Made by a program: the position numbers and the translations under genes | Source of the DNA: Escherichia coli | GTDB taxonomy: Bacteria; Pseudomonadota; Gammaproteobacteria; Enterobacterales; Enterobacteriaceae | Direction: 5' to 3' (one strand) | NCBI RefSeq assembly: GCF_003334335.1 | Contig: NZ_QOWQ01000238.1 | Length of the DNA stretch: 222 bases | Shown here: in pieces, positions 1-222 of the stretch | How positions within the stretch are numbered: position 1 is the first letter of the stretch | Layout of the letters: each line of letters starts with the position of its first letter | The notes under the pieces: generated by a model | The model's input: only the letters and a program-made list of their open reading frames with translations | Databases searched by the model: none | What the model was told of the DNA's origin: nothing

Positions 1-80
1 AATAAAACAATCATCAAATACAGAATTTTCGTAGGCTGAGGGATTGCTGAAAATAATTTAGTGCGTCCTTCAATGGTCAT
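1..80 (-). CDS. Possible 5' end of a protein-coding gene running off the window (N-terminus MTIEGRTKLFSAIPQPTKILYLMIVL...); product unknown
   Basis: The reverse complement has ATG at 80-78 followed by 26 stop-free codons to the window edge. The peptide ends in a hydrophobic stretch (ILYLMIVL) compatible with a membrane segment. Against: no Shine-Dalgarno upstream (sequence before the ATG is cagcacaatctg), G at first codon position is low (4 of 26), and the frame is also open upstream of the ATG, so the start is ambiguous. A second in-frame ATG lies at 14-12. Confidence 0.2.
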   Translation of the reverse strand, partial: MTIEGRTKLFSAIPQPTKILYLMIVL

Positions 81-118
81 CAGATTGTGCTGATGTAAAC
101 AGTTAAGCACAATTTGAT
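79..118. repeat. Imperfect inverted repeat (13-bp arms, 14-nt spacer); candidate operator or RNA stem-loop
   Basis: Read directly: 84-91 ATTGTGCT is the exact reverse complement of 106-113 AGCACAAT. Pairing extends to 79-91 against 106-118 with one G/T mismatch (83 vs 114), which would be a G-U wobble in RNA. The stem is AT-rich with only 3 G-C pairs in the perfect 8-bp core. An 8-bp inverted repeat alone is not rare in AT-rich DNA, so function is uncertain. Confidence 0.4.
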
Positions 119-137
119 TATTTGACTTTCTTCTTTT

Positions 138-153
138 TGTGACTGACTTCACA
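138..153. promoter_or_regulatory. CRP-family (cAMP receptor protein) binding site with perfect core TGTGA-N6-TCACA
   Basis: Read directly: TGTGA at 138-142, 6-bp spacer CTGACT at 143-148, TCACA at 149-153, centre between 145 and 146. This matches both consensus half-sites of the established CRP motif. The 22-bp context 135-156 is tttTGTGActgactTCACAatt with AT-rich flanks. A rough estimate puts chance occurrence of both perfect half-sites at this spacing in a window of this size and composition well below 1 in 1000. Binding is not demonstrated. Confidence 0.55.
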
Positions 154-222
154 ATTAAAGATGTAACCGTATACAAATTGTTGATGAATAAAGAGACAGC
201 ATAAGTGGCAGGCCAGTCGTAA

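Follow-up and report, generated by a model that had tools for sequence, protein, structure and literature searches.

A conserved, predicted cAMP-CRP operator in the regulatory region of the prophage-borne eib adhesin genes of Escherichia coli

We propose that a perfect palindrome in the regulatory cassette of the eib adhesin genes of Escherichia coli is a functional cAMP-CRP operator, most likely one that activates eib when cAMP is high. Judged from the sequence, such a function is probable, and we attach lower confidence to its sign and to its promoter class. The palindrome lies within a 222-bp stretch of DNA (hereafter the window), and the quality of the site, its location and its selective conservation are established by the comparisons reported here. 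A preliminary description of this DNA had named the palindrome as a cAMP-CRP operator implying catabolite control. That reading is still a prediction, now carried by a matrix score and a phylogenetic footprint, and published effects of growth medium on Eib levels (PMC5450701) bear on it circumstantially. The features of the window are as follows.

78..80, minus strand: start codon of a hypothetical minus-strand gene, rejected
79..137, plus strand: hairpin with T-rich tail (arms 79-91/106-118), a terminator-like boundary of the eib cassette
135..156, no strand assigned: predicted CRP-type operator of 22 bp (TTT TGTGA CTGACT TCACA ATT), centre 145.5
138..142, no strand assigned: left half-site TGTGA, without variation in the window's family (62 copies, 39 haplotypes)
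143..148, no strand assigned: spacer CTGACT, 6 bp, unconstrained
149..153, no strand assigned: right half-site TCACA, invariant in the window's family, with TCA.A invariant across lineages
163..166 (8163-8166 in locus L001), plus strand: GTAA, invariant in the alignment, 17.5 bp from the site centre in seven lineages
174..179, plus strand: CAAATT, a weak candidate -10 element of class II, inferred from sequence, with a start near 186 and CRP at about -40.5

The exact core TGTGACTGACTTCACA occupies positions 138-153 within the 22-mer TTTTGTGACTGACTTCACAATT (135-156) and is two-fold symmetric, TGTGA-N6-TCACA with a 6-bp spacer, just as had been described. The surrounding DNA is AT-rich (34.2% GC in the window and 30.7% at positions 100-200, against 56.5% in the adjoining tail genes), and RefSeq annotates no feature beneath the site, in agreement with the earlier account of an AT-rich, non-coding stretch. 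The sole open reading frame that is found mechanically in the window, a 21-aa GTG frame on the plus strand (139-204), overlaps the site; it changes non-synonymously, is missing from other lineages and was rejected. Chance would yield the exact core pattern 0.01 times per window, and 1 of 200 dinucleotide shuffles contained it. Given that a perfect core arises by chance about once per megabase, the case leans mainly on conservation.

Site quality was scored with a symmetrised 16-position matrix derived from 107 CRP sites that underlie ChIP-seq peaks of ETEC H10407 (PMC4287617 Table 1). The window site reaches 14.8 bits, at or above 77% of these 107 sites when they are scored leave-one-out, so that the weight-matrix scan against a site collection suggested at the outset places it inside the range of sites bound in vivo. 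The next-best 16-mer across the whole intergenic region has 3.7 bits, and 43 of 20,000 shuffles of that entire 681-bp region reached 14.8 bits. Perfect cores make up 8 of the 107 ChIP-seq-derived sites (PMC4287617), which bears out the earlier remark that such a core is unusual among verified sites. The score falls below the 21.9-bit consensus because the spacer has C9/T14 and not T9/A14; the spacer and the left flank (TTT) are the sub-optimal parts of the site. Variants from other lineages score 11.4-17.9 bits (36th-93rd percentile), all within the range of ChIP-bound CRP sites, and T6 and A17 are invariant across every lineage. T6/A17 is said to mark CRP-N sites, and C6/G17 the Sxy-dependent CRP-S sites, a distinction reportedly drawn by Cameron and Redfield in 2006. 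By these two bases, the predicted operator is of the ordinary, Sxy-independent (CRP-N) type.

Two complete E. coli chromosomes match the window at 100% identity, and the region is present in 27 of 5,426 complete E. coli genomes (0.5%), always on the chromosome and with a median of 3 and a maximum of 5 copies per carrying genome. In NZ_CP145707 (locus L001) the window corresponds to 8001-8222 and falls within a 681-bp gap. Upstream of this gap is the remnant of a tail-fibre-assembly (DUF4376) gene, interrupted by an IS21 element. Downstream, a 438-aa 'YadA C-terminal domain' coding sequence begins at 8410, and beyond it come a phrog_6585 gene and an S6 (SPATE) autotransporter. The 438-aa product matches the EibD crystal structure (1e-83), and the gene is an eib gene, encoding an immunoglobulin-binding trimeric autotransporter adhesin. 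Identification of the flanking genes, which had been recommended, thus yields a tail-fibre-assembly remnant on one side and an eib-type YadA-like coding sequence on the other. The plus-strand gene that had been considered possible beyond position 222 is eib, which begins with an ATG 264.5 bp downstream of the site centre, well past the window end. The distances given earlier were also right: from the centre at 145.5 it is 65.5 bp to position 80 and 76.5 bp to position 222. With the region upstream of eibA in prophage P-EibA of ECOR-9 (AF151091) the intergenic region shares 97% identity, and with its counterparts in seven recently deposited PhiR phages 96.6-98.7%. The site falls in the regulatory DNA of an eib 'moron' located where lambdoid prophages carry their cargo: the cargo gene follows the tail-fibre-assembly gene, has its own regulatory signals and flanking hairpins, and differs in composition (34-39% GC vs 56% in the tail genes).

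This part of the prophage also bears traces of rearrangement. In L001 the DUF4376 gene just upstream of the eib cassette is split by an IS21-family element with ISSso4-like istAB (5183-7490 + 7591-7728), and L023 and several PhiR phages likewise have IS elements on the flanks of the cassette. An 11-bp insertion, GTCACTCAATA, which is a near-duplicate of the neighbouring sequence, is found at about position 77 of the window in L008, L021 and L022, and the PhiR phages carry an insertion of about 114 bp between the tail-fibre-assembly gene and the window. The distal intergenic part tolerates indels; the site and the leader do not. The regulatory cassette of about 270 bp, together with the signal peptide, is 92-100% identical among L002-L024, and the Eib proteins are about 52% identical overall. 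A fixed control region over a variable Eib suggests recombination or diversifying selection downstream.

All 16 homologous loci that were fetched keep both pentamers, with a spacer of CTGACT, CTAACT or CCAACT. Across the window's family (62 copies, 39 haplotypes) 30 of the 222 positions vary, none of them among the 10 half-site positions and two among the 6 of the spacer, a difference that alone is not significant (P roughly 0.2). More diverged loci were found through the Eib protein; their upstream DNA is too diverged to be matched to the window by BLAST. These lineages carry the site with at most one mismatch, 259.5-276.5 bp from the ATG, in the forms TGTGATGTTGCTCAGA, TGTGATATTGATCAGA, TGTAATTTTGTTCACA, TGTGATGCATATCAAA and TGTGGTGCTTATCACA, and a second perfect core, TGTGATGGTTATCACA, occurs among them. 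The six diverged lineages agree with the window at 9-10 of 10 half-site positions and at 0-2 of 6 spacer positions, and their ±60-bp flanks are 30-44% identical to it. Within the left half TGT is invariant across them and GA nearly so. In the six-lineage alignment the 5+6+5 half-site mask at 138-153 ranks first of 432 alignment windows for conservation. Within 400 bp the site clearly outscores every other matrix match in each of the diverged lineages, and the chance of such a score within 21 positions is at most 6e-4 per lineage.

Ascertainment through the motif itself was avoided by use of a motif-independent anchor, the leader block about 192 bp downstream (ATCAGATTTTCTTTA-N4-5-TCYGA). With this anchor the site was present in 49 of 49 metagenomic eib leaders that had enough upstream DNA and in all genuine eib leaders of the viral collection, at offsets of -189 to -195. 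Anchor matches in one viral locus (L027) and in 17 metagenomic sequences were rejected as chance matches, and a scan of species-representative genomes for the leader anchor returned unrelated taxa only, again chance matches. One locus (L012) has an Eib-like C-terminus, a different N-terminus and a different upstream region, and it has no site; the site therefore goes with the eib-type leader and not with every YadA-like gene. Loss of the motif from related intergenic regions had been raised as evidence that would speak against an operator; the motif is kept in all eib lineages. Conserved half-sites around a free spacer reproduce the information profile of CRP, and on this sequence pattern we conclude that the site is selectively maintained.

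The lineage of L009 and L025 has additional CRP-like sequences. A second strong one, AGTGATGCCTGTCACA (14.8 bits), lies 90 bp upstream of the main site (L025 1301-1316; L009 2127-2142), and a weaker third, GGTGACGGATATCACC, adjoins the TAnnnT block of the leader that is described below. At the aligned position the main family has the 10-bp palindrome GTGATATCAC, in which TATCACCG is similar to a half-site of the lambda operator.

A perfect core at the chance rate of about 1/Mb, seen in 1 of 200 window shuffles and able to form a 6-bp stem, might be a coincidental palindrome or an RNA hairpin without any protein-binding role, but its fixed offset in every eib lineage despite decayed flanks makes this extremely improbable. 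As RNA the 6-bp stem is weak (-4.8 kcal/mol, z = -1.7), and an Rfam search of the region with E up to 1 gave no match. The half-site changes between lineages are one-sided and break the pairing (G-G, G-A, A-C), the right-half variants TCAGA (L006/L011) and TCAAA (L026) being uncompensated on the left side. Uncompensated changes of this kind argue against an RNA stem and are the behaviour of independent protein half-sites.

The FNR consensus, TTGAT-N4-ATCAA, has T rather than G at the discriminating position. The window site mismatches it at 4 of 10 positions and G5 is kept in every left half-site, so that an FNR site was rejected; C18 is likewise found in all right half-sites save the TCAGA of L006/L011 and the TCAAA of L026. 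It is nevertheless conceivable that another protein binds the palindrome, either FNR or a regulator encoded by the prophage or by an island, such as IbrB. EibG responds to oxygen tension (PMC4352079), the right half in L026 (ATCAA) is FNR-like, an invariant GTAA lies beside the site, and IbrAB is reportedly required for single-copy eib expression (Sandt 2002, cited in PMC7649339). Set against these observations, the conserved positions are exactly those of CRP (G5, T6, G7, A8; T15, C16, A17) around a free 6-bp spacer, every variant scores as a ChIP-bound CRP site does, and EibG is very low under anaerobiosis (PMC4352079), when FNR is active. We therefore consider a different binding protein very unlikely, and favor CRP.

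As for the direction in which CRP would act, the bases around the invariant GTAA have diverged, and GTAA fits no promoter element at either of the two candidate starts discussed below. The left flank of the site has no conserved columns and no consistent -10 element across lineages. GTAA has no left-flank counterpart, which argues for a rightward, eib-side function. The hairpin at 79-91/106-118 (13-nt arms, 92% complementary, -18.2 kcal/mol, z = -4.07) runs into a T-rich tract that reaches the site. Hairpin and tract, which include no canonical U-run, may shield eib from read-through of the late operon; in L006 the corresponding position, about 80 bp before the site of that lineage, is occupied by a canonical plus-strand terminator. 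Flank pattern and upstream hairpin together suggest a layout of terminator-like boundary, CRP site, leader and eib. The preliminary description had held that neither orientation nor class can be set from sequence; it was right to leave both open. Conservation points rightward to eib.

A leftward or bidirectional CRP-dependent promoter could instead produce a non-coding or antisense RNA towards the tail-fibre genes, ending at the tail-fibre-assembly terminator. CAAATT does stand at class II distance on the minus strand too (reverse complement of 111-116), and in L001, L025 and L026 the tail-fibre-assembly stop is followed by a terminator-like hairpin whose T-run is on the minus strand. We consider this quite improbable, given the left flank described above, a minus-strand open reading frame that is not conserved, and a minus-strand window RNA that is unstructured (z = -0.34) and has no Rfam match. 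Moreover, terminators are expected at the lambdoid tail-fibre-assembly junction anyway, which counts against a leftward promoter. The hairpin in question is GC-rich and lies directly after the stop in all three loci scanned (L001 7736-7753, L025 1205-1224, L026 1173-1192); its T-run being on the minus strand, it would terminate leftward transcription or act in both directions. The earlier suggestion of a minus-strand gene with its start at position 80 does not survive comparison, since C78T removes its ATG in 9 of 39 haplotypes. In addition, an 11-bp indel in codon 2 (L008, L021, L022) shifts its frame, and the 161-aa minus-strand open reading frame has no PHROG match and no RefSeq annotation.

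A simple sigma-70 scan gave no match inside the window. The only intergenic match, TTGAGC-17-GATAAT, ends 18 bp before the ATG, and its -10 element is not conserved. The window's own family has no good sigma-70 promoter at a canonical class I or class II distance; class I distances (-61.5 to -92.5) were rejected on reading the sequence, which offers no usable -10 element there. Hexamers that are -10-like or TG-extended occur 2-3 bp downstream of the position of the class II candidate CAAATT in several, though not all, diverged lineages. The second candidate is a lineage-invariant TAnnnT, which in L001 is TATAGT at 8260-8265 (window + 260-265) and would place CRP at about -127. The distance from the site centre to TAnnnT is 114.5 bp in the window's family and 111.5-116.5 bp across lineages; with a range of 5 bp, helical phasing is not strictly kept.

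We infer CRP as the binding protein, activation as the effect, and the promoter that is its target. In the mechanism that we favor, when glucose is absent and cAMP is high, CRP would bind 138-153 and rightward transcription into eib would rise. Two architectures may be envisaged. In one, a class II promoter beside the site would start near 186 and give a structured leader of about 225 nt. In the other, CRP at about -127 would act on a promoter whose -10 element is the invariant TAnnnT (TATAGT), and would probably do so by opposing H-NS silencing of the AT-rich DNA, or together with the IbrAB activators, as at pap. A more specific proposal is a composite site, in which the CRP operator and the GTAA at 17.5 bp form one unit and CRP cooperates with IbrAB to desilence all eib prophage copies of the cell simultaneously. 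We offer this tentatively and think it unlikely; if true, it would provide the first DNA target and a mechanism for the IbrAB family, in which IbrB is ParB-like and IbrA PAPS-reductase-like, and would tie the display of an Ig-binding adhesin to carbon status.

The leader between the site and eib contains several further elements. Its most conserved block (L001 8255-8310, window + 255-310) reads TA...TA.G..A..TCC, includes TATAGT and is probably the core promoter region. TATAGT is followed there by a stem-loop with 11-bp arms that is annotated in AF151091, the loop of which holds a second invariant motif, T.A.ATT.A. Further downstream, at L001 8336-8364, is a hairpin ACATCAGAT...ATCTGATGT (z = -5.6), and L026 has GTGTCAG...CTGACAC at the same place, amounting to three compensatory pair changes, which suggests an RNA element in the eib leader. 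The 5' arm of this hairpin, CATCAGATT, recurs at window 78-86. The consensus leader RNA fold as a whole has -2.1 kcal/mol and almost no covariation. At L001 8322-8399 a 25-aa upstream open reading frame (MRAARHQIFFIYLML...) is preceded by a good Shine-Dalgarno sequence, AGGAG at 7 nt from its ATG, and its 3' end falls within the ribosome-binding region of eib; a comparable frame exists in 4 of 6 lineages (L001, L006, L011, L026) and is absent from L010 and L009/L025. The palindrome GTATAC occurs three times (L001 8169-8174, 8380-8385 and 8401-8406), and the two proximal copies bracket the Shine-Dalgarno region, which their pairing could occlude. Finally, a 15-nt inverted repeat joins window 164-178 with L001 8376-8390.

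Published expression data are in line with activation by CRP. EibG and the EibA/C/D/E proteins of ECOR-9, as well as the Eib proteins of ECOR-2, are highest in LB (PMC5450701). In M9 with 1% glucose, and likewise in yeast-extract medium containing 2% glucose, the proteins are considerably less abundant; their levels climb to a plateau at stationary phase (Rubin et al., PMC5450701). The authors read the medium effect as nutrient deprivation (PMC5450701); it is equally what catabolite repression predicts and fits CRP activation, as circumstantial evidence that is confounded by growth rate and acidification (pH). Our literature search found no paper linking CRP to eib, no CRP binding, transcription-start or crp/cya data for any eib gene, and no EMSA, footprint or ChIP data for eib-positive strains. 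Elsewhere, CRP displaces H-NS at pap from far upstream (PMC11316696), and it targets acquired virulence genes (PMC4287617, PMC12360894), sometimes as a repressor. In EAEC 042, for example, CRP down-regulates the putative adhesin 0536 (PMC12360894), and the sign at eib therefore cannot be assumed.

CRP might thus bind the site and repress, fine-tune or insulate eib rather than activate it, which we think unlikely. Besides the EAEC adhesin, this possibility draws on the want of any fixed canonical activating geometry and on a plasmid experiment, in which eibG with only 168 bp of upstream DNA, the site being absent, complemented a deletion from multicopy pGEM (bioRxiv 10.64898/2025.12.25.695649). 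The success of that construct means that a proximal promoter or vector read-through exists and that the CRP site is dispensable at high copy number. Nonetheless, Eib drops in both glucose media and increases towards stationary phase (PMC5450701), and all candidate core promoters are downstream of the site, with none overlapped by it. We accordingly retain activation as the more probable effect of CRP.

The class I and class II CRP promoters of E. coli are exemplified by lac and galP1. Like canonical E. coli cAMP-CRP sites, the eib site has the form TGTGA-N6-TCACA with two-fold symmetry and T6/A17, is intergenic and scores in the upper quartile of bound sites. Unlike them, it is accompanied in the window's family by no good -10 element at -41.5, -61.5 or similar, the best-conserved block puts CRP at about -127, and the site resides on accessory prophage DNA that is found in 0.5% of genomes in several copies each. 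At pap, too, an adhesin gene is embedded in AT-rich DNA, CRP has its site a long way upstream of the probable promoter, and glucose lowers expression (PMC11316696); PapB/PapI serve there as dedicated co-activators, as IbrAB would at eib. However, the pap operon is chromosomal, encodes fimbriae, undergoes Dam/Lrp phase variation and has divergent promoters; nothing comparable is seen at eib. The co-option of a global metabolic regulator for mobile virulence cargo has precedents in ETEC estA and in the pet, capsule and adhesin 0536 genes of EAEC (PMC4287617, PMC12360894). These targets are plasmid or island genes at which binding was mapped experimentally, whereas the eib site is prophage-borne and predicted. 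As with lambdoid morons such as lom, bor and the cargo carried behind tail-fibre genes, the cassette is an AT-rich insertion that follows the tail-fibre-assembly gene, and it comprises a terminator-like hairpin on its upstream side, a regulatory region of its own, a cargo gene and a stem-loop downstream. Most described morons, in contrast, have simple constitutive or lysogen-active promoters, and the eib cassette has about 270 bp of regulatory DNA with a predicted CRP operator. The eib operator is thus a new predicted instance of a very well known type of element and is not categorically new.

Eib proteins confer non-immunological immunoglobulin binding, chain-like adhesion and aggregation on Shiga-toxin-producing and commensal E. 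coli, and their regulation has so far been described phenomenologically, in terms of static or shaken culture, medium, oxygen and IbrAB. The conserved operator offers a concrete, testable mechanism, which should be useful to the field of Eib and STEC adhesion. Since both low-Eib media held 1-2% glucose, the published 'low expression' in 'minimal or low-grade media' is possibly catabolite repression, and CRP control predicts that glucose shuts off the eib adhesin. As every sampled eib copy carries the site, coordinated control of the 3-5 prophage copies of a strain is likewise predicted. The regulatory cassette of about 270 bp is far better conserved than the adhesin under its control, and a functional operator within it would add a case of mobile virulence cargo wired into the global carbon regulon of its host.
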